Below are positions 1,064 to 36,477 of a DNA stretch of 36,477 nucleotides, piece after piece. Numbering within the stretch: position 1 is the stretch's first letter; each line of letters starts with the position of its first letter. The position numbers and the translations under genes were made by a program. The notes under the pieces were generated by a model that saw only the letters and a list, made by a program, of their open reading frames with translations, did no database searches and was not told the DNA's origin. Source of the stretch: a virus. Lineage: Duplodnaviria > Caudoviricetes. The stretch lies in IMG/VR virus record IMGVR_UViG_3300032247_000480, positions 1 to 36,477 of that record; one strand, written 5' to 3'.

Positions 1064-1342
1064 ATGAATAAATCACATTGGACAGAAAACCAGCAAGCAT
1101 ACCTTGAAGCTAACATCAAAATGGGTATTGATCAACTTGCAGCGATATTAGATGTAAGCACTAGAACTATCAGAGATAAGATTAAGATTTATGAGCAACA
1201 ACATAAAGTAAAACTTACCAGAGAATATGTTAAGCAAAAAGTGAAGCGAGTTGAAGCACCTCTGGTAATTGTAAGACCACCGAAAGAATACACTAACAAG
1301 AAAACAGGGAACGATTTAATAGAATTAATTTTAAATAGTTGA
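1064..1342 (+). CDS. Helix-turn-helix DNA-binding protein
   Basis: WTENQQAYL...IDQLAAILDVSTRTIRDKI matches an HTH pattern. Confidence 0.7.
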   Translation: MNKSHWTENQQAYLEANIKMGIDQLAAILDVSTRTIRDKIKIYEQQHKVKLTREYVKQKVKRVEAPLVIVRPPKEYTNKKTGNDLIELILNS

Positions 1343-1377
1343 TTTTTAGAAAAAAAATAGCTGTAATATTGCAGCGT

Positions 1378-1492
1378 CTTAGAAGTAGAACACTAAGTCA
1401 TTGAAAACATTTAACGCCTCTAAGGCGGTAAGGTCTTGGTTTAATAAAGTTTAAACCAATGTTCTACCCTTACCATCTTAGAGGTTTTTTTT
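1378..1492 (+). promoter_or_regulatory. Structured leader RNA (small hairpin, long terminator-like hairpin and T8 tract) upstream of the replication initiator
   Basis: CTTAG/CTAAG hairpin at 1378-1397; long stem 1417-1433/1468-1484 with inner stem 1436-1444/1451-1459; loop GTAGAACA complementary to bulge TGTTCTAC; T tract 1485-1492. Confidence 0.65.
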
Positions 1493-2203
1493 ATGGCTAA
1501 AGACCCAGCATTTTTATTTTATCCGAATGATTGGCTTGGCGGAACTATGTATATGTCATTTGAGCAAAAAGGTTGTTATTTAGAATTATTAATGCTGCAA
1601 TTTAATTGTGGCAAATTTACAATAACACAAGTGGAACAAGTGTTAAACAAGTGTTTTTCACAATGGGAACATATAAGCAACAAATTTGTAACAGACGGCA
1701 CTTTTTTTTGGAACAAAAGGCTTAGTGAAGTTATGGTTAAACGCGGCGAATTTTCTGAAAGCAGGCGAAATAATAGGCTTGGTAAGGGTAAAAAAACAAG
1801 TGTTAAACAAGTGTTAAACATAAGTAAATCAAGTGAACAACTTATGGAAAATGGAAATGAAAATGAAATTGAAAATATAATTTTAAATAAAAATGGTTTT
1901 TTTATAAATGAAATTTCAAAAAATATTTTGTTGAATAAAAGTGAAATTGACAATACAAAAATATTTATTGAGGTACAAACAAAAATAAATTTAACTGATG
2001 AAGATGTCGGCAAATATTTTGAAGCATTTAAAATTGACAATTTTGATAAAAAAGAATGGTATAATTCACACTCCGATTTCATATCTCATTTTAGAAACTC
2101 TTTAAAAATTAATTTAAAAAATGGAACACATCAGCAAAATAATCAAGCACCAGCAAAGCATGGAACTAGCAACGCAAGAGTTGAAGCCCTTAAAAAATGG
2201 TGA
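1493..2203 (+). CDS. Phage replication initiator (DUF1376/YdaU-like N-terminus)
   Basis: N-terminus MAKDPAFLFYPNDWL...MSFEQKGCYLELLMLQF is typical of DUF1376; low-complexity linker and internal iteron-like repeats. Confidence 0.75.
   Translation: MAKDPAFLFYPNDWLGGTMYMSFEQKGCYLELLMLQFNCGKFTITQVEQVLNKCFSQWEHISNKFVTDGTFFWNKRLSEVMVKRGEFSESRRNNRLGKGKKTSVKQVLNISKSSEQLMENGNENEIENIILNKNGFFINEISKNILLNKSEIDNTKIFIEVQTKINLTDEDVGKYFEAFKIDNFDKKEWYNSHSDFISHFRNSLKINLKNGTHQQNNQAPAKHGTSNARVEALKKW
1627..1840 (+). repeat. Iteron-like repeats (A)AACAAGTGTT inside the initiator gene; candidate origin
   Basis: Tandem copies at 1635-1655 and 1794-1815 plus degenerate copies, followed by an AT-rich stretch at about 1850-2000. 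Confidence 0.6.
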
Positions 2204-2879
2204 TGTTGATATTTTTAAAAGAAGTCTTTTATCGTATCAGATTAAAAATAGCTCTGAAAACGATTTAAAGTCGGTTTTAAGGCAAGTTATGCTGAAAGTG
2301 GGGCTACGAGCTGCCAACCTTCCAAATGATGAAGAAAAACAAATTTTATTAGCTTTTATAAATCAGAATTATGGGAATCATACAACGGGCGAAATTATCT
2401 TGGCGTTTGATTTGGCAATTGCCGGCAAATTGGATTTAAAAGAAGTTAATTGTTACGAGAATTTTAGCTGCTTATATTTTGCTTCAATTATGAATTCTTT
2501 TAGAAAATGGGCAAGCGTTCAAGTTATGTATATTCCTGATGAAGTTCAATTGCAATTACCAGAACCACCACCAAAACAAAGTAATGGAGAGTTTGTATTA
2601 TTCTGGCTTAACGAATGGCGAGAATCAGCTACTAAAAACTATTTTTTATTTGGGCAGTTTGCCAAAGTTTATGAAATTCTTACTGAGAATAATTCGATCG
2701 ATTTAACTGAGAAAGAAAAAGAATCGATAAAAACTAAGGTAAAAAATGATTTAATAAATAGTTGCCGCAATGAAAATGAACTTGTAAAAATGAGAAAGAA
2801 TATATCTAATGAAAACTATTTAAAACCTCATTGCAAAAAACTCGCAGTTGCTAATTATTTTAATCAAATAATTTGGTAA
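2121..2879 (+). CDS. Hypothetical protein, possible helicase loader/replication partner
   Basis: 252 aa ORF overlapping the end of the initiator, in the lambda P position; function inferred from synteny only. Confidence 0.6.
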   Translation: MEHISKIIKHQQSMELATQELKPLKNGDVDIFKRSLLSYQIKNSSENDLKSVLRQVMLKVGLRAANLPNDEEKQILLAFINQNYGNHTTGEIILAFDLAIAGKLDLKEVNCYENFSCLYFASIMNSFRKWASVQVMYIPDEVQLQLPEPPPKQSNGEFVLFWLNEWRESATKNYFLFGQFAKVYEILTENNSIDLTEKEKESIKTKVKNDLINSCRNENELVKMRKNISNENYLKPHCKKLAVANYFNQIIW

Positions 2880-3016
2880 CGAACAGGTATTGCTTTGCAG
2901 TTGTGGAATTGGCAGCACAACTGTTGAATAAAAAACGAATGATGCCATGTTGCTCAACTGCCACATTATTAACGTCAAGCCACAATTGCAGCAATATCTT
3001 TGTTGGCTGTAGTTGC
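2877..3016. repeat. attC-like imperfect inverted repeat, site 1
   Basis: Left arm AACGAACAGGTATTGCTTTGCAGTTGTGG (2878-2906) pairs with CCACAATTGCAGCAATATCTTTGTT (2980-3004), with bulged bases; bounded by AAC...GTT. Confidence 0.7.
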
Positions 3017-3048
3017 GGTCAAATTATAAAACTTTAAAAACAAAATAT

Positions 3049-3294
3049 ATGCACTACAAAATTGTTGAAACAGGAAGCGGAAGCCCTGATGTTTTATTAC
3101 ATAGAGATAGAGATGATGAAGGCGAATTTGTCCGAATATTCGCCATAGGAATGATGGAAGGCGAAGAAAATATGTTTGCCATAGAAAGAGTTGATTTTGA
3201 AAACTACACAACTGCCATTCGCTTTATTAAAGACTTTTCAAAATTAGCTGCCGAAGAATGGTGTGTCAAACAATGTATTGATTACTGGGTGTAG
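3049..3294 (+). CDS. Hypothetical acidic protein (cassette 1 gene)
   Basis: ORF 3013..3294; the likely start is the ATG at 3049 after an A-rich leader; it lies between attC-like sites. Confidence 0.7.
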   Translation: MHYKIVETGSGSPDVLLHRDRDDEGEFVRIFAIGMMEGEENMFAIERVDFENYTTAIRFIKDFSKLAAEEWCVKQCIDYWV

Positions 3295-3502
3295 CAATTA
3301 CACACAACGAACAGGGCTTGGCGATGGTTTGGAATTTGGAAATCGTCAGTCCGTAACCGAAGTACAATAGAATTACTAATGTTTAAAAACTTACAAAAGA
3401 TGAATACAGATTTTCCTGATTGGTATCAAGCTGAATTAAATTCAAATGCCGATGATACTTCCGTCCGCCAAACTATTGCCAAACCCAATGTTGTAGGCAG
3501 TT
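3294..3502. repeat. attC-like imperfect inverted repeat, site 2
   Basis: Has the same AACGAACAGG as site 1 (at 3306); GGGCTTGGCGATGGTTTGG (3314-3332) pairs with CCAAACTATTGCCAAACCC (3468-3486); GTT at 3490. Confidence 0.7.
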
Positions 3503-3858
3503 TAGTCAAACCACACGATAGGTTTAAAAATGCAGCTTTATTTCTTTGTGGTTATTTAAAATATTCAGAAGATAAGGTTGATGATGTTGCAAGTGTAATA
3601 AGGCGTTACGCTGCATTAAATGAGCCTTACGAGTTATGCACTTGTCAAAAGTGTAATCAAGTTGTCGAATTAAATTTTTATGAAGGTGATGATGAAGAAT
3701 GCAGCCACCCACATTATACTTGCCCATATTCTCAATGTCGAGCCATTTATTACGACAAGTTTGGCAAAGAAAGATGGGAAGAACTTGAATACCATTACAA
3801 AAAAATTGAAGAAAGTTTTAGAGAAAGGCAGTTTGATTTTGATGATGATGACTGGTAG
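3379..3858 (+). CDS. Hypothetical protein with a Cys/His zinc-binding cluster (cassette 2 gene)
   Basis: CTCQKC...CSHPHYTCPYSQC; its N-terminus is encoded inside attC-like site 2. Confidence 0.7.
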   Translation: MFKNLQKMNTDFPDWYQAELNSNADDTSVRQTIAKPNVVGSLVKPHDRFKNAALFLCGYLKYSEDKVDDVASVIRRYAALNEPYELCTCQKCNQVVELNFYEGDDEECSHPHYTCPYSQCRAIYYDKFGKERWEELEYHYKKIEESFRERQFDFDDDDW

Positions 3859-4021
3859 CCGTCAAATTGCCTATAAATCATAAATATCCGCACATCAACA
3901 TAACCAATTAAATATCAATGTTACAAAATACAATTTATTACGATAACGTATGGAAACTAATGAAAGAATAAGTATGAAGGATTATTATAGCAAGATTTTT
4001 TTAACAAGAAACAAATAAACA

Positions 4022-4240
4022 ATGAAACATCTACCTAAAGATAAATATGGGATTCAAGTTAAGATAGGAGATAAAGTAAGGGGTTTTGGATTTATTGTAT
4101 TTCAAGATGGATTTAAAATAGACAGAAGCCCCGTTGTAACTGCAAATATTCAAAATGGCAGGCTTTACTTCGGCAACTTATCTTATGAATCATTTAACAA
4201 CAATTTTGAAATAATAAACAATGAAACAAACACCGCTTAA
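4022..4240 (+). CDS. Small hypothetical protein (YopX C-terminus/SH3-like pattern)
   Basis: KDKYGIQVKIGDKV motif; A-rich start context. Confidence 0.6.
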   Translation: MKHLPKDKYGIQVKIGDKVRGFGFIVFQDGFKIDRSPVVTANIQNGRLYFGNLSYESFNNNFEIINNETNTA

Positions 4241-4286
4241 TAATAACACCGCTTTGGTAGCAGTATTAAGAGTAAAGAAATTTAAA

Positions 4287-4318
4287 TAAAATCCCCCAAC
4301 GTAGAAACGCCAGGGGAT
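4287..4318 (-). terminator. Intrinsic terminator-like hairpin with a CGTAGAAACG core, after the lysis cassette
   Basis: ATCCCC...GGGGAT stem (4291-4318) followed by a T run on the minus strand; lies between convergent operons. Confidence 0.65.
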
Positions 4319-4347
4319 CAACCAAAAAACTGCTTGTATGCAAAAAG

Positions 4348-4857
4348 TTATGCTATTGCTGTTAATGAACTTTTATATAAGCTCATAAAATCTTTTTTAG
4401 CTTCTGCCGTATCTTCTTTCGGATTTGCTACCCATTTCTTTTGATAGATATTATAAAGATCATTTGAATCAGCAATTCCTGCAGAACCTATAAACATTCC
4501 ACGTTGCTGAACCTTAAAACATAAAAACTCAAAACAAGCTTGATAGCCATTTTCATTAAAGCAAATAAATCTTCTTGTATCGCCAGCACCGTCAACTTTT
4601 ATTGAAGTACCAATAACATTACTCAAGTCTAAACCCTCCCATTTAGCGTTGTCGGCTTGAATGCCGCCGTAATTATTGTTTACTCCGCTTTTACCGTTAG
4701 CTGATTCATTTCTGAATATACAATAAGCCATTCGCACAACTTCCTTTGGATATTTGCCAACCAATGACTTTGCAAACGCAACTACTGTAGGCATATCAAC
4801 AGAAGTTCTTTGATATGGAATTTCTGGGAACTGAGGGTAATAATTTTTAATACTCAT
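4348..4857 (-). CDS. Putative endolysin (lysozyme-like/glucosaminidase fold)
   Basis: ESANGKSGVNNNYGGIQ resembles the GH73 ES-x-G...NN-x-x-GI motif; last gene of the cassette containing holin- and spanin-like genes. Confidence 0.6.
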   Translation of the reverse strand: MSIKNYYPQFPEIPYQRTSVDMPTVVAFAKSLVGKYPKEVVRMAYCIFRNESANGKSGVNNNYGGIQADNAKWEGLDLSNVIGTSIKVDGAGDTRRFICFNENGYQACFEFLCFKVQQRGMFIGSAGIADSNDLYNIYQKKWVANPKEDTAEAKKDFMSLYKSSLTAIA

Positions 4858-4890
4858 TTTATTTTGAATTTATTTTTTAGTTATTTTTTT

Positions 4891-4981
4891 TTGGAAATTT
4901 GTAAAATATCTATTGTTTAAATTTCCAATATTTTTTATAAAGCCTTATTTAATAATGGTTTCAGCGTTTACAAATTTCCAA
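4891..4981. repeat. Perfect 15-bp inverted repeat with an internal partial copy
   Basis: TTGGAAATTTGTAAA (4891-4905) and TTTACAAATTTCCAA (4967-4981); a third AAATTTCCAA at 4919-4928. Confidence 0.75.
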
Positions 4982-4983
4982 TT

Positions 4984-5625
4984 TTACACAAACATCAACA
5001 CTTTTGCCAACCAACTCGGCAACTTGTCTTTGTAATATTTTAACGTGAAATAAACAATTGGGATAAGCAATAATAACAGCCACCACAAACTGAAGCTATG
5101 TTTAACCTTAGTTGTGCTAACGGTCTTTAATTCCTTCCTTAAATTGGTAGAATCAAAGGTTGATTTGCTGCCACTATCGCTATTTTTATAATCAATTTTA
5201 GTTTTAGCTAAACTATTTTGCACATCCTTTTTTGTACTTGATTGCTTAGTAGTTTCTGTAACAGATTTTAACGGTTTATTGCTAGTGATTAACTTAACTC
5301 CTGCACTATCTTTTAAAGTAACTTTTGTAGGTTCTGATGTGTGAATGTAGCCACTGTCAAAGGTAATATTCAAGGTGTTTTCGCCATCCGCAATAGTTGT
5401 TTTGTCGCTGCTGTTACTTTTCGTTTCTTCAACCAAACTATCAATAAAACTGTGAATAGCACTATCTGACTTGTGAACACTAACGCTATCTTCTTTTAGA
5501 TGTTCAGTTGACCTTGTTTTGTTTACTGAATTGCAGGAACACAATCCTAATACTAATAACGCTATTAACATTACGCTTATAATGGTAGCAATTAACTCCG
5601 ATATATTTATTTTAAGTTGGTTCAT
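4984..5625 (-). CDS. Putative unimolecular spanin (lipoprotein with C-terminal TM helix)
   Basis: Hydrophobic N-terminus with lipobox LGLCSC, Ser/Thr-rich middle, C-terminal SLWWLLLLLIPIVYF; lies between holin and endolysin. Confidence 0.65.
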   Translation of the reverse strand: MNQLKINISELIATIISVMLIALLVLGLCSCNSVNKTRSTEHLKEDSVSVHKSDSAIHSFIDSLVEETKSNSSDKTTIADGENTLNITFDSGYIHTSEPTKVTLKDSAGVKLITSNKPLKSVTETTKQSSTKKDVQNSLAKTKIDYKNSDSGSKSTFDSTNLRKELKTVSTTKVKHSFSLWWLLLLLIPIVYFTLKYYKDKLPSWLAKVLMFV

Positions 5626-19178: not shown

Positions 19179-19231
19179 TGTGAGTGCAATTTATTTAAGA
19201 CTTAAAAATTGAATGGGTTTGTGTGGTACAT

Positions 19232-19261
19232 AAAAAACCCCAACGTAGAAACGTTGGGGTT
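19232..19261 (-). terminator. Intrinsic terminator with a CGTAGAAACG core
   Basis: AACCCCAACGT-AGAA-ACGTTGGGGTT perfect stem (19236-19261) with a T tract on the minus strand. Confidence 0.75.
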
Positions 19262-19290
19262 AAAAACAAAAAAAACTATGAGAAAAACTA

Positions 19291-29689: not shown

Positions 29690-29735
29690 CAAATATATAA
29701 TTAATTTTTTTATTTCAAATAAAACACTATTTTTG
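29690..29735. promoter_or_regulatory. Divergent Bacteroidota-type promoters at the late/early arm boundary
   Basis: TATATTTG on the minus strand (29690-29697) and TATTTTTG on the plus strand (29728-29735). Confidence 0.55.
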
Positions 29736-29771
29736 CCAAATATTTATTTACAACAATTAAAAATAAAACAA

Positions 29772-30902
29772 ATGGAATTAGAAATTTTAAAAGAAACTAT
29801 CTTTATGTATATAGAAGATAAATCTTTAAAAGAAAAAGTTGATATAATCAACGAAATTAGAGAATATATACATAATTTAAGCCCATTTAAAAATGAGCCT
29901 GTTGATTATGTTAAATGGGTTTTAAGTAGTGATGTTATTGCAAATGACTACAATCCAAACAAAGTTGCTCCGCCTGAAATGGAGTTGTTAGAAATATCTA
30001 TTATGAACGATGGATATACTCAACCCGTTGTAACATTTCCAAATGATGGCAAAATTGAAGTTGTTGACGGATTTCATAGAACAAGGGTAAGTAAAGAATC
30101 TAAAATTGTTCGTGAGCGTGTTATGGGATATACTCCTACTGTAATAATAAGGAAAGAGCAAAGCAATAAAAACGATAGAATTGCATCAACTATTAGGCAT
30201 AACAGAGCCAGAGGCAAACATCAAGTTGATGCAATGAGTGAAATTATTTTAGAATTAAAAAATCGTAATTGGAAAAACGAAAGAATTGCAAGAGAGTTAG
30301 GAATGGATGAAGAAGAAATTTTGCGTTTATGCCAAATTACAGGTTTGCAAGATATTTTTAAAGATGATGATTTTAGCAAATCTTGGGAGGCTTCGGATTC
30401 TATTGCTGATTATATACCTCTTACAGACGAATTGACGGACGAAGAAGTTGAGCATTATAGAACAGTAAACACAAATGATCCTGAAAGAATATTTCACACA
30501 TTTGAAAAATGGGAATGTCATAAAGCTGGCTTTTATGCAAGCAAAAAAGAAGGAATGACAGCCGAACAATGTGAAAAAGAGTATGCAACCTATTTGTCTG
30601 ACGAACATAGATTTAAAGAGGGCTTGAGTGGCGTTATTTCTGAATGGAAAAATAGTTGCGAACATTATCTAACGAATAAAGCTATGAATAGAATAGCTTG
30701 GCTAGGGCAGGCTGCAATGTGTTATTCAACAGGAATCCCATCTAAGTTTTGTGCAGGGTTTAATTTGCTTACAGCAGATCAGCAAGACAAGGCAAATCTA
30801 ATTGCATTAGAAGCATTGAATTATTGGATGAAGCAAAATAACAGAAATGAGGTATCTATTGAAGATGCTTTATCTATTGGCAGACAAGTAAATATTTATT
30901 AA
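29772..30902 (+). CDS. ibrB: IbrB/YbdM-like ParB/Srx protein with a fused C-terminal domain
   Basis: SPFKNEPVD...ANDYNPNKVAPPEMELL...DGYTQP...VVDGFHR...ASTIRHNRARGKH; start reassigned to the ATG at 29772. Confidence 0.85.
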   Translation: MELEILKETIFMYIEDKSLKEKVDIINEIREYIHNLSPFKNEPVDYVKWVLSSDVIANDYNPNKVAPPEMELLEISIMNDGYTQPVVTFPNDGKIEVVDGFHRTRVSKESKIVRERVMGYTPTVIIRKEQSNKNDRIASTIRHNRARGKHQVDAMSEIILELKNRNWKNERIARELGMDEEEILRLCQITGLQDIFKDDDFSKSWEASDSIADYIPLTDELTDEEVEHYRTVNTNDPERIFHTFEKWECHKAGFYASKKEGMTAEQCEKEYATYLSDEHRFKEGLSGVISEWKNSCEHYLTNKAMNRIAWLGQAAMCYSTGIPSKFCAGFNLLTADQQDKANLIALEALNYWMKQNNRNEVSIEDALSIGRQVNIY

Positions 30903-30904
30903 TT

Positions 30905-32113
30905 ATGGCAACAAAAATATATAATAATAAAACAGTGTTTCAGGCTAGCACTGAAAGAGTGGCACAAGTATTTGATAATTTTGAACGTATTTACGTTTCA
31001 TTTTCGGGAGGCAAAGATAGTAGCGTTATGTCGCATATTGTTTTATCTGAAGCAAGGAAAAGAGGCAGAAAAGTTGGTTATTTAATAATAGATTTAGAAG
31101 CCCAGTACAATGACACTATATCACATATTAATGAAATGATTAATATGTATAAAGACGTAATTGAATTACATTGGGTTTGTGCTGAATTGTTATTAAGAAA
31201 TGCAGTAAGTAATTATCAACCTCGTTGGATATGTTGGGACGAAGATAAAAAAGATGTTTGGGTAAGACCAAAACCAACATTAGCATCAGATTTAAAACAA
31301 TACGATTTTTATGTGCCTAAAATGGAATTTGAGGAATTTATGGTAATATTTGGCGAATGGTATTCGCAAGGGAAAAATACCGCTGCATTTATTGGCATTC
31401 GTGCAGATGAAAGTTTGCATCGTTATAGAGCTATTGTTAGCAGAAAAGATGGTTTAATGTTTAACAATTGGAAGTGGTCAACAAAAGTATCTGACAAACT
31501 TTACAACATTTACCCAATATATGATTGGAAAACGGAAGATATTTGGGTTTTTCACGGCAAAAACAAACACCTTATTCATAATAAAGTTTATGATAAAATG
31601 ATGATGGCAGGAGTTAAGTTAAGCCAACAACGGCTTTGCCAACCTTACGGAGATGATCAAAGAAAAGGGTTATGGTTATATCACATTTTAGAGCCTGAAA
31701 CTTGGTACAAATTAATAGCCAGGGTTAATGGTGTCAATAGTGGTGCTTTATATGTGCAAGAAAATGGAAATGTATCGGGATATAATAAAATATTTAAACC
31801 AGAAGGTCATACTTGGCAAACATTCTGCAATCTTTTACTTTCAACAATGCCACAAAAAACAGGGTTGCATTATAGAGAAAGATTTAAGAAATTTATTAAA
31901 GGTTGGCAAGATAGAGGATACTTAATTATTCCAGATGAAGCCCCTGAAGATTTAGAAAGTAAGTGTTGGGTTCCATCTTGGCGTAGAATGTGTAAAGTTA
32001 TGTTAAGGAATGACTATTGGTGCAAGGGATTAGGACAAACACAACCATTGTCAGATGCTTACCAACAATTTAAAGAAATTAAATCAAAAAGAAAAATAGC
32101 AGCAAATTTATGA
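30905..32113 (+). CDS. ibrA: IbrA/YbdN-like PAPS-reductase-family (PP-loop) protein with a DUF3440-like C-terminus
   Basis: SFSGGKDS, IDLEAQY, GIRADESLHR, YPIYDWKTEDIW, RLCQPYG, PSWRRMCKVMLRNDYWCKGL. Confidence 0.88.
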   Translation: MATKIYNNKTVFQASTERVAQVFDNFERIYVSFSGGKDSSVMSHIVLSEARKRGRKVGYLIIDLEAQYNDTISHINEMINMYKDVIELHWVCAELLLRNAVSNYQPRWICWDEDKKDVWVRPKPTLASDLKQYDFYVPKMEFEEFMVIFGEWYSQGKNTAAFIGIRADESLHRYRAIVSRKDGLMFNNWKWSTKVSDKLYNIYPIYDWKTEDIWVFHGKNKHLIHNKVYDKMMMAGVKLSQQRLCQPYGDDQRKGLWLYHILEPETWYKLIARVNGVNSGALYVQENGNVSGYNKIFKPEGHTWQTFCNLLLSTMPQKTGLHYRERFKKFIKGWQDRGYLIIPDEAPEDLESKCWVPSWRRMCKVMLRNDYWCKGLGQTQPLSDAYQQFKEIKSKRKIAANL

Positions 32114-34306: not shown

Positions 34307-35032
34307 ATGAGTACCGAATTAGTCAAGCTAGATTTTTCAAAAGAACAGATTGAATTAATCAAATCACAAATTGCACCAAAAGCAACAAATGATGAATTAA
34401 AGCTATTTATCTACCAAGCCAAAAGAACAGGCCTTGACCCTTTAGCAAGACAGATTTATGCCATACACCGCAAGTCTGGCAATGTAGAAAAAATGACTAT
34501 TCAAACTTCGATTGATGGGTTTAGAGTTATTGCTGAAAGGTCTGGCGATTACGGCGGACAAGATGAACCAATCTTTATTGAAGATGCTAAAGGTTTACAA
34601 TGTTGCAAGGTTACTGTATATCGTTTTAGAGGTGATATTAGATATGTGGCCGCAGTTGGTGTAGCATATTGGAGTGAATATGTGCAGGCTTATAATGGGC
34701 AACCAAGCGGATTATGGGCAAAGATGCCACACACGATGCTTTCAAAGGTTGCCGAAGCCCTGGCACTTCGAAAAGCATACCCACAAGATTTAAGTGGTTT
34801 ATATACTGCTGATGAAATGGCACAAGCAAACGAACCCACTCAAGAAATTGTAAATGTTGATTATACTGAATTGACAGAATCAATACAAAAATTAAGCAAG
34901 TGTGATAATGTCGAGGAATTGAAGTTGTTAAAAGAAACACTACCTAAGTGGATAATTACCAATGTTGAATTTAAGGCAGCCGCAAAACAAAGATTTGAAC
35001 AAATTAAAACTACTGACAATAAAACAGTTTAA
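34307..35032 (+). CDS. bet: Single-strand annealing protein, Bet/RecT family
   Basis: [43 protein letters not shown]...GLYTADEM. Confidence 0.92.
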
Positions 35033-35591: not shown

Positions 35592-35718
35592 GAAACCATA
35601 CCCCCAATGCTTAATGAAAAAGCTGGTAGAAATGCCGCCAATTTTATTAGCAACCGGCGAAATTATCAACGATACTCAAGTGGTATTGGTTGAGGAAGTA
35701 AAGTAAAAAAACAGCTAA

Positions 35719-36477
35719 ATGAACCCAACTTTTAAACATATAGGATTATTCGCAGGGATGGGCGGTTTTGAACTAGCTGCATCCTATATGCGTTGGGAAA
35801 CATTAGCTTGGTGCGAAATAAATCCTTTCTGCCAAACAATTTTAAAATATCACTTTCCTAAAGCAGCGTCATATGGCGATATTAAAACAACAGATTTTAC
35901 AATTTACCGAGGAAAATGCGACATTCTCACAGGAGGATTTCCTTGCCAACCATTCAGCGTTGCAGGCAAAAGAAAAGGGACAGAAGATGAACGCCACTTG
36001 TGGCCCGAAATGCTTAGAGCAATTCGAGAAATTCAGCCACCGTGGGTTGTGGGCGAAAATGTTGGTGGCATCGTTAGTTGGGATGGAGGGTTGGTATTCG
36101 AGCAGGTGCAAATTGACTTGGAAGCTGAAGGGTACGAAGTACAACCGTTTATACTTCCAGCTTGTGCCGTCAACGCTCCACATAGGAGAGATAGAGTGTG
36201 GTTTATTGCCTACAACAAACACAACAGGAATAGACGGAGGAAGCAACAGCCGAAAAGCGAACAAGAAAAGAATAGAGCTTTTAAAAACACCAACTGTGAT
36301 GGATGGAGAAGTAACGAGTGGAAAGAAAAACCCGGTGTCGGGGAATTCGGGAACATTAGCACAGGAAATAATGAGCAGCTATGCACCAACACTTGCAATG
36401 CTTTACAAAATGTACCCAACACCAACTGCGATGGATGCGACCACTGCAACGGCAACAATGAAAAGCACACAAGTAAA
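35719..36477 (+). CDS. C5 DNA cytosine methyltransferase, N-terminal part (continues across the junction to 447; 360 aa in total; missing from the ORF track)
   Basis: Hand translation shows motif I (IGLFAGMGG), motif IV (GGFPCQPFS), motif VI (GENV) and motif VIII (PHRRDRVWFIA), with no stop before the window end. Confidence 0.95.
   Translation, partial: MNPTFKHIGLFAGMGGFELAASYMRWETLAWCEINPFCQTILKYHFPKAASYGDIKTTDFTIYRGKCDILTGGFPCQPFSVAGKRKGTEDERHLWPEMLRAIREIQPPWVVGENVGGIVSWDGGLVFEQVQIDLEAEGYEVQPFILPACAVNAPHRRDRVWFIAYNKHNRNRRRKQQPKSEQEKNRAFKNTNCDGWRSNEWKEKPGVGEFGNISTGNNEQLCTNTCNALQNVPNTNCDGCDHCNGNNEKHTSK
35873..36477 (+). CDS. Nested +1-frame ORF within the methyltransferase (putative beta subunit), N-terminal part; 287 aa in total from the first ATG
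   Basis: ATG at 35873 follows a TAA at 35843; the frame is open (MAILKQQILQ...LLPTTNT...LLKTPTVMD...) through the junction to 382. The true start is uncertain. Confidence 0.75.
   Translation, partial: MAILKQQILQFTEENATFSQEDFLANHSALQAKEKGQKMNATCGPKCLEQFEKFSHRGLWAKMLVASLVGMEGWYSSRCKLTWKLKGTKYNRLYFQLVPSTLHIGEIECGLLPTTNTTGIDGGSNSRKANKKRIELLKTPTVMDGEVTSGKKNPVSGNSGTLAQEIMSSYAPTLAMLYKMYPTPTAMDATTATATMKSTQV
36355..36477 (+). repeat. Terminal direct repeat, right copy (circular assembly overlap)
   Basis: Identical to 1-123. Confidence 0.97.

Follow-up and report, generated by a model that had tools for sequence, protein, structure and literature searches.

The phage genome recorded in IMG/VR as IMGVR_UViG_3300032247_000480 contains, between its replication genes and its lysin gene, a short array of hairpin sites and accessory genes that resembles the cassettes of integrons. 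We analysed the whole record of 36,477 nt (referred to as the window in the rest of the text), which is a complete phage genome of 36 kb with direct terminal repeats, coding for a Mu-like portal, a contractile tail, RecT (34307-35032) and a fragment of a DNA methyltransferase. The array occupies the end of the rightward replication operon, directly before the convergent lysin gene. Its fixed left edge is the TAA stop codon of a 252-aa gene of the replication module (2121..2879, + strand, an open reading frame (ORF) call), which overlaps the first AAC. There follow on the + strand an attC-like hairpin, site 1 (2878..3004, 127 nt, AAC...GTT), cargo gene 1 (3049..3294, 81 aa), a second hairpin, site 2 (3306..3492, 187 nt), cargo gene 2 (3379..3858, 159 aa with a Cys-rich core) and a predicted attI-like docking site (3875-3893). 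No relatives of the upstream gene were found in viral contigs, and the window had no DNA-level match in annotated phages. As the initial annotation had stated, the phage lacks an integrase: there was none among the 50 ORFs of the window in Pfam and PHROG scans, and six-frame searches of the whole record, which is classed complete, with PF00589, PF00239 and an alignment of the associated recombinases described below (A4) returned no match at E≤1, the family controls being positive in 14 and 13 of 14 reference genomes. There is thus no intI gene on the element, and no remnant of a recombinase was found after the terminal dock.

The coordinates first given for the two hairpins are correct, with AAC at 2878-2880 and 3306-3308 and GTT at 3002-3004 and 3490-3492, and the 10-mer that they share, AACGAACAGG, has just two copies in the window (2878 and 3306). 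The bulged bases described for both are present in site 1, which has a 2-base bulge, but not in the main stem of site 2, and no bulge is conserved. The outer flanks pair across each gene, 3002-3016 with 3294-3308 at 12 of 15 positions and 3491-3502 with 3865-3876 at 10 of 12, compared to 5 of 15 (site 1) and 9 of 15 (site 2) across their own hairpin. Folding energy by itself is weak evidence for these structures (z = −1.0 and −1.9 for the + strand; for the − strand, −0.8 and −1.2). A generic inverted-repeat scan placed site 1 in the middle of its top 12 and did not list site 2, and both approaches were rejected as identifiers since neither singled out the sites. A gapped motif derived from the shared 5′ arm was also abandoned, as its 120 loci in the viral collection looked like chance matches (best arm score 27 versus 31-32 in the window). 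A detector of AAC...GTT arms, which we tuned ourselves, retrieved only sites 1 and 2 in the window and nothing in three 36-kb Markov controls; a pattern search built from both sites and matching just those two was circular. No relevant Rfam match was found over 1300-5000.

Comparison provided the decisive argument for the stems. When 75 sites of 121-128 nt were aligned (site 1 of the window and 74 others, mutually less than 80% identical), 15 of 17 stem pairs exhibited compensatory changes and 93% of cells paired. The covariation score was 0.687, with shuffled controls giving 0.176 and slid ones no more than 0.11; selection of the sites for arm complementarity makes the observed values upper limits. 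A family of covarying hairpins thus exists beyond the window, whose absence would have spoken against the reading first proposed. The likeness to attC sites claimed at the same time extends to the architecture, an imperfect hairpin with a covarying stem bounded by AAC and GTT, but not to its finer details. Classical attC sites have RYYYAAC/GTTRRRY R boxes and two or three extrahelical bases opposite the crossover AAC (Nivina 2016). Both flanks fit the R boxes in only 4 of 217 sites, neither site of the window fitting on both sides, and the consensus of the 75 sites has no conserved extrahelical bases. Bulges in the phage and metagenome sites (158 sites) fell on the AAC arm in 52 cases and on the opposite arm in 3.

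Two cassette units can be drawn on this basis, each comprising a site, the gene behind it and the complementary right flank: unit 1 at 2880..3307 and unit 2 at 3308..3876, both on the + strand. Across the family, the two ends of a unit are complementary to each other at a mean of 5.4-6.3 of 7 positions compared to 3.3-3.6 across their own hairpin, which, as in the window, is the complementarity of cassette ends in an opened circle. Gene 1 belongs to no known family; its 6 homologues are 59-95% identical. Since no DNA context for them was found in viral contigs or 401 genomes, the boundaries of unit 1 were drawn from the behaviour of the family, and, viral contigs containing no relative of either gene 1 or the upstream gene, comparison offers no independent check on unit 1. 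Gene 2, for which 53 database matches were obtained, is not a member of a known family either. It is predicted to start at 3379 inside hairpin 2, the loop of which contains the start codon and first 38 codons, the GTT of the hairpin being the codon for Val38, and its homologues differ in their site-encoded N-termini. Pfam, PHROG and the ESM Atlas assigned no function to either cargo (the best Atlas scores, 0.86 and 0.83, are only leads). An ATG within a site reading through GTT for at least 40 codons occurred in 28 site-frame cases among 57 viral sites compared to 3 among 37 host sites, suggesting that, in the phage orientation, the hairpin loop often supplies a start codon. A 32-codon ORF (2939-3037, +) also starts in the loop of site 1, crosses GTT as a Val codon and stops 11 nt before gene 1, to which it is possibly translationally coupled.

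Relatives of gene 2 were found in 54 other loci (7 viral, 45 metagenomic and 2 in genomes), and the context of the gene was compared in 53 loci, that is 52 relatives and the window's own. Gene 2 was almost always enclosed by the same two flanks, and its neighbours nearly all differed (36 clusters among 41 loci downstream, 35 among 40 on the left). Among unique contexts (36 of 41 loci), mean pairwise identity dropped at the downstream AAC, from 0.85 for the preceding 25 nt to 0.33 for the following 25 nt. Before the upstream GTT, it was 0.70 over 25 nt and 0.85 over the last 9 nt (44 unique among 51 loci), with a background of 0.38 for unrelated 3′ arms (20 of 21); these break-point values include the window's own locus, and three AAC positions were fixed by hand. 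Because identity collapses past the downstream AAC yet extends into the upstream hairpin, the unit appears as hairpin-then-gene, bearing out the site-then-gene unit breaking at AAC of the initial annotation. Its AA/C crossover stands insofar as the main break falls within the AAC(G) core; the choice of a single bond is made by analogy with integrons, the credible cassettes containing only AA/TT pairs among the core variants that could pin the cut. The six other site pairs at least 90% alike, gene-2 sites left out, divided into two for the GTT side only, none for the AAC side only, one for both and three for neither, and the five such pairs of host sites into two, none, none and three, respectively. 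In the gene-2 loci, hairpins and the genes that follow them are thus seen to move mostly together. The hairpin bodies upstream of gene 2 nevertheless formed 13 clusters among 41 loci, and the N-terminal leader encoded by hairpin 2 is also fused to YopX-family genes (P0051 and P0053). Hairpin bodies have therefore been swapped between genes, implying a rarer exchange at or near GTT. Loss of extrahelical bases favours top-strand recombination (Nivina 2016), which would fit such an exchange by analogy; homologous exchange by RecT would fit too.

Related phages vary at the same boundaries, so that modular gain and loss, on which the first reading depended, is observed both at the gene-2 loci and in a close strain. 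The latter is represented by one 26,667-nt contig from another sample of the same study (run X2; runs X2 and X3 contain only small portions of the window stretch). This contig is ~90% identical to the window over 2700-2883 (18 differences), departs three bases past the first AAC (2883), rejoins at 3866 and matches 3866-4009, thereby keeping the terminal dock. It has ~3,335 nt in place of the 982 nt of the window, including one 36-nt piece resembling an arm of site 1. A distant complete phage (G410), whose lysin is 85% identical and whose DNA is similar in only five short stretches, has in the same slot five other hairpin-plus-gene units and a dock-like end, and no PF00589 domain. Array L292 has five units, and there is none in the lysin relative L293. 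That cassettes are exchanged as modules is, in our view, nearly certain.

Among the seven viral records with gene 2, one has a PF00589 domain, in a 294-aa tyrosine recombinase encoded directly after its array. Docks were located 40-64 nt upstream of the recombinase gene in 16 of the 19 viral loci encoding this family (distances measured for 13 distinct docks). In them, the AAC ending the last cassette is followed by 11 nt and then CG(A/C)A (TG in one dock type), near the start codon. The same recombinase with an identical dock adjoins different cassettes in L177 and in L178/L179, where the adjacent cassette is gene 2, and also in L180, L181 and L183. Another phage array with its own recombinase (L127:250-4200, G006) includes three cassettes resembling DNA methyltransferases by motif and one unit with a GTA...TAC core instead of GTT...AAC.

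The initial annotation had suggested looking for the same hairpins near a tyrosine recombinase in Bacteroidota, and they are found in chromosomes of Chitinophagaceae. A profile of the recombinase family matched 84 of 201 genomes of this family (that of G008), and 7 of the 12 host recombinase regions examined have arrays of at least two hairpins alongside. In hosts, the array starts with the dock motif in reverse complement (CG, 11 nt, GTT) in 14 of 36 loci; in 40 further regions where CG was not required, 7 of 11 first-cassette starts had CG and the other four CA. One host array (L175) comprises five hairpins with the same face and combines minus-strand host genes with a plus-strand gene-2 unit, the most direct sign that phage-type units may enter host arrays. 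The same contig (L175:3737-11257, G008) carries genes for an arr-family rifampin ADP-ribosyltransferase, a beta-lactamase-family serine hydrolase with TPR repeats and a DinB-family protein. Because records of Niabella, Chitinophagaceae and Sediminibacterium contain homologues of gene 2, we assign the phage to a probable Chitinophagaceae host.

The host enzymes (~400 aa) and phage enzymes (~290 aa) form separate branches in a quick tree, the 15 phage enzymes being grouped with an SH-aLRT support of 95; both are separate from the Xer proteins of the hosts themselves in this tree, which has long branches and an unsure root. Neither group has the insertion specific to IntI, which is the I2 domain of integron integrases (Escudero 2016), as 58-62 residues separate two catalytic motifs compared to 99 in the IntI of a Shewanella phage. 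TIGR02249 matched each time in two separate stretches, scoring 143.7, 187.9 and 174.8 where its cut-off is 265, and the best NCBIfam match of phage and host enzymes alike was NF040815 (187-212 bits, cut-off 220). The host recombinases also have an N-terminal extension of ~110 aa without Pfam match that is absent from the phage enzymes (L244:1750-2115, −). It is very likely that the cassettes are moved by the recombinase family found beside the docks.

The array was originally described as ending in a half site. There is indeed no full hairpin at this end, but 3875-3893 (+) is a recognisable dock of the host type (core, 11 nt, CG) rather than a mere half, that is, a predicted attI-type, non-hairpin site at the variable end of the array. 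It scored 14.7 bits with a profile of 17 host docks compared to 1.4 bits with a profile of 13 docks of phage recombinases. Under the host profile, with the core left out of scoring, it ranked first among 72,750 positions, and again first with a profile of only the 11 host docks found without the CG filter. Its likeness to host docks was noticed before the profile was built, and the window was absent from the training set. It is identical to the dock of L305 at 14 of 16 positions. The phage-dock profile with the core included placed it at rank 332 of 72,750, true docks scoring 10-20 bits in leave-one-out, and this profile was replaced by the host profile as a poor fit to the terminal site. Of 28 cassette ends lacking a hairpin, 14 are followed by CG at the dock spacing (8 of 21 once ends in the training set are removed), compared to none of the 98 ends that have a hairpin. 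The C absent at 3877 looks like a variant base of the dock (AAA for AAC), the spacing to the conserved CG being kept, and the array may no longer accept new units with this core. Arrays L137, L156, L126, L135 and L292, which have no recombinase, likewise end in dock-like sites, and those of L156, L126 and L137 are clearly better as host-type than as phage-type docks.

The relative polarity of sites and genes is opposite in phages and hosts. Of 28 cassettes in viral loci, 22 have their ORF on the AACG...TGTT face and 6 are unclear; of 20 in host loci, 16 have it on the opposite face and 4 are unclear, neither set containing an exception. Metagenomic loci had 35 ORFs on the AACG face, 15 unclear and 6 opposite, five of these six being from the host-type arrays L175 and L167 and one marginal. 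The gene precedes its attC in the resolved host arrays (16 of 16) and follows it in the phage units. G.T pairs and lower folding energy mark the recombining (bottom) strand of attC sites (Nivina 2016). Both belong here to the AACG face, with G.T to C.A ratios of 99:31, 153:76 and 57:23 in the three sets and a lower folding energy in 46 of 53, 60 of 78 and 8 of 11 short sites; the coding strand of site 1 is accordingly its bottom-strand face. Since this bias falls on the same face whether it is transcribed (phage) or not (host), it suggests a DNA rather than an RNA structure. The layout is thus the reverse of the classical one relative to the genes, as initially noted, but dock, crossover and hairpins are classical on the other strand. 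Because the same sites occur in host arrays with classically oriented genes, it is likely that recombination polarity is classical and that the genes alone are inverted.

Taken together, we think it probable that the locus is a short array of hairpin-plus-gene cassettes moved as circles by a host tyrosine recombinase devoid of the IntI insertion. By analogy with integrons, the coding strand would fold into a hairpin and be cut between AA and C. Excision between two sites would release a circle whose two flanks complete the hairpin, and insertion of this circle at the dock would leave an array starting with a full site and ending in the other half of the dock, the unit beside the dock (gene 2) being the youngest. 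The inverted phage genes would be transcribed from the upstream early operon, with the hairpin loop able to give the start and first codons (a promoter scan was at chance level, with 20 found versus 15.3 expected). A rarer second exchange near or at GTT would swap hairpin bodies, hence protein N-termini, between genes. In view of the host-type terminal site, we favour recruitment of the host's enzyme in trans. More tentatively, and with slightly less than even confidence, we propose that Bacteroidota possess a second, widespread integron-type system, with recombinases acting on folded single-stranded sites despite the lack of I2 and of the extrahelical bases held to characterise this chemistry. 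Their phages would tap this system through mirror-image cassettes and a copied host dock, with two-way exchange of cassettes with host arrays, the hairpin acting as a portable start and the crossover at the GTT Val codon recombining N-termini.

Several observations weigh against this account. No circle joint or excision junction and no empty dock were seen in assembled contigs, which drop rare forms. The recombinases are tied to the arrays by adjacency only, 5 of the 12 host recombinase regions have no array of at least two sites, and the dock motif follows only 14 of 36 host recombinases. The dock of the window has AAA, not AAC, as its core. Linkage between site and gene is not strict, with 13 body types before gene 2 and a body like that of site 1 preceding another gene in L159. 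The ~3.3-kb insert of the close strain is known only by its length and its arm-like piece, L175 is a contig of a metagenome-assembled Chitinophagaceae genome bin, and the host was assigned from homologues of gene 2, not from observation of infection. Finally, gene 2 also stands beside a phage-encoded recombinase of a separate clade.

This last point means that a helper phage could supply the enzyme. The same cassettes and chemistry would then be served by the short ~290-aa recombinase of a co-infecting or resident phage, or by one lost by an ancestor. The docks preceding 16 of 19 viral genes of the family, gene 2 adjoining such a dock in L178/L179, and the well-supported branch of phage enzymes all agree with this explanation. 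We nevertheless regard it as unlikely given the 1.4 bits of the window dock as a phage-type site versus 14.7 as a host-type one, the single PF00589 domain among seven viral gene-2 records and the lack of any recombinase remnant after the dock of the window.

Considerably less probable is that the hairpins are dispersed repeats or RNA regulatory elements and that the genes are shuffled by homologous or micro-homologous recombination involving RecT. Shuffling by homologous recombination has a precedent in the promoter stem-loop modules of T4, and the phage encodes RecT, hairpin bodies are swapped between genes and start codons lie in the loops. However, homology at the main break amounts to only the 3-4 nt of the core, homologous exchange leaves the complementary unit ends unexplained, the G.T bias keeps to one physical face whether transcribed or not, and a dock and recombinases are associated with the sites. 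RecT may still account for the rarer body swaps. A classical cluster of attC sites lacking an integron integrase (CALIN), made of gene-then-attC cassettes from an IntI integron with crossover at G/TT on the coding strand, fits the architecture of two sites without integrase, the AAC/GTT cores, the cross-gene complementarity, the similar site lengths and the recombination by IntI1 of the terminal site of Polaribacter phage P12002L (Qi 2023), but appears largely refuted by the co-segregation data, the hairpin downstream of gene 2 being of 36 types among 41 loci and so not moving with it. Also against it are the rarity of sites fitting both RYYY and RRRY flanks (4 of 217), the absence of conserved extrahelical bases, and adjacent enzymes that reach only 144-188 bits of the 265 required by TIGR02249 and lack the insertion.

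Other features of the window were observed. A Mu gpF-like minor head protein contains an intein/Hint domain (PF04233 with PF14890/PF13403; 23566-24744, −). The DNA methyltransferase region seems broken into a number of short ORFs that span the origin of this circular record (35700-36477 and 1-447), with a phrog_363 match only on 163-447, possibly through a frameshift or an inserted segment. A ParB-like protein adjoins a PAPS-reductase/DUF3440 protein (29733-32113, +), a pair known from DNA-modification modules. Two related 47-nt hairpins, 77% identical, lie at 4283-4329 and 19227-19273, the former being the sole terminator-like match in 1300-4500, between the convergent early and lysis genes.

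If our interpretation is correct, a gene-capture route whose recombinase family was found in 84 of 201 sampled Chitinophagaceae genomes, with arr and beta-lactamase-family cargo in L175, would be absent from current surveys. In phages, it would provide a site-specific mechanism for the mosaicism of accessory genes in genomes without recombinase. A recombinase acting on hairpins without I2 would also bear on how integrases shifted from double- to single-stranded substrates. The locus constitutes a minimal test set, comprising two sites and a dock together with a naturally occurring strain variant and one host array in which the same cassette is present.

Prior notice in the literature searched appears partial. 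According to IntegronFinder 2.0, complete integrons are nearly absent from Bacteroidetes, the one named for Bacteroidetes proper being in Salinibacter. No description of reversed phage cassettes, of the dock or of these recombinases was found in the full-text literature searched, subscription journals being outside its coverage. The closest case is that of attC clusters without integrase in virulent phages including P12002L (Qi et al. 2023, PMC9892861), which also has attC-like sites between accessory genes and no integrase. We found that the two P12002L sites tested there belong to a site-then-gene array, in which attC1 is an internal hairpin and attC2 is the terminal site; IntI1 recombined attC2 but not attC1. 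That paper mentions only "divergent directions", ascribed to mosaicism, and no reversed polarity, dock, host arrays or dedicated recombinase. The enzymes resemble XerC/XerD and the archaeal XerA type (NF040815) by their best NCBIfam match and similar catalytic-domain length, but their probable targets are cassette hairpins and a dock, not dif. With integrons, the system shares a tyrosine recombinase (PF13495 and PF00589) beside a non-hairpin dock, a variable cassette adjoining that dock, imperfect hairpins that have AAC/GTT cores and bound the cassettes, complementary cassette ends and one strand favoured by G.T pairs, and a host array (L175) contains an arr-family gene, a typical integron cassette cargo. 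Unlike integrons, it has enzymes without the IntI insertion (58-62 versus 99 residues between the two catalytic motifs), sites without conserved extrahelical bases or RYYY/RRRY flanks, a host recombinase gene upstream of and codirectional with its cassette genes, and phage genes inverted relative to the sites and often starting inside the hairpin. Judged from its sequence, the locus departs from integrons in IntI, extrahelical bases, R boxes and gene orientation, and is best described as an integron-like array rather than a textbook integron.

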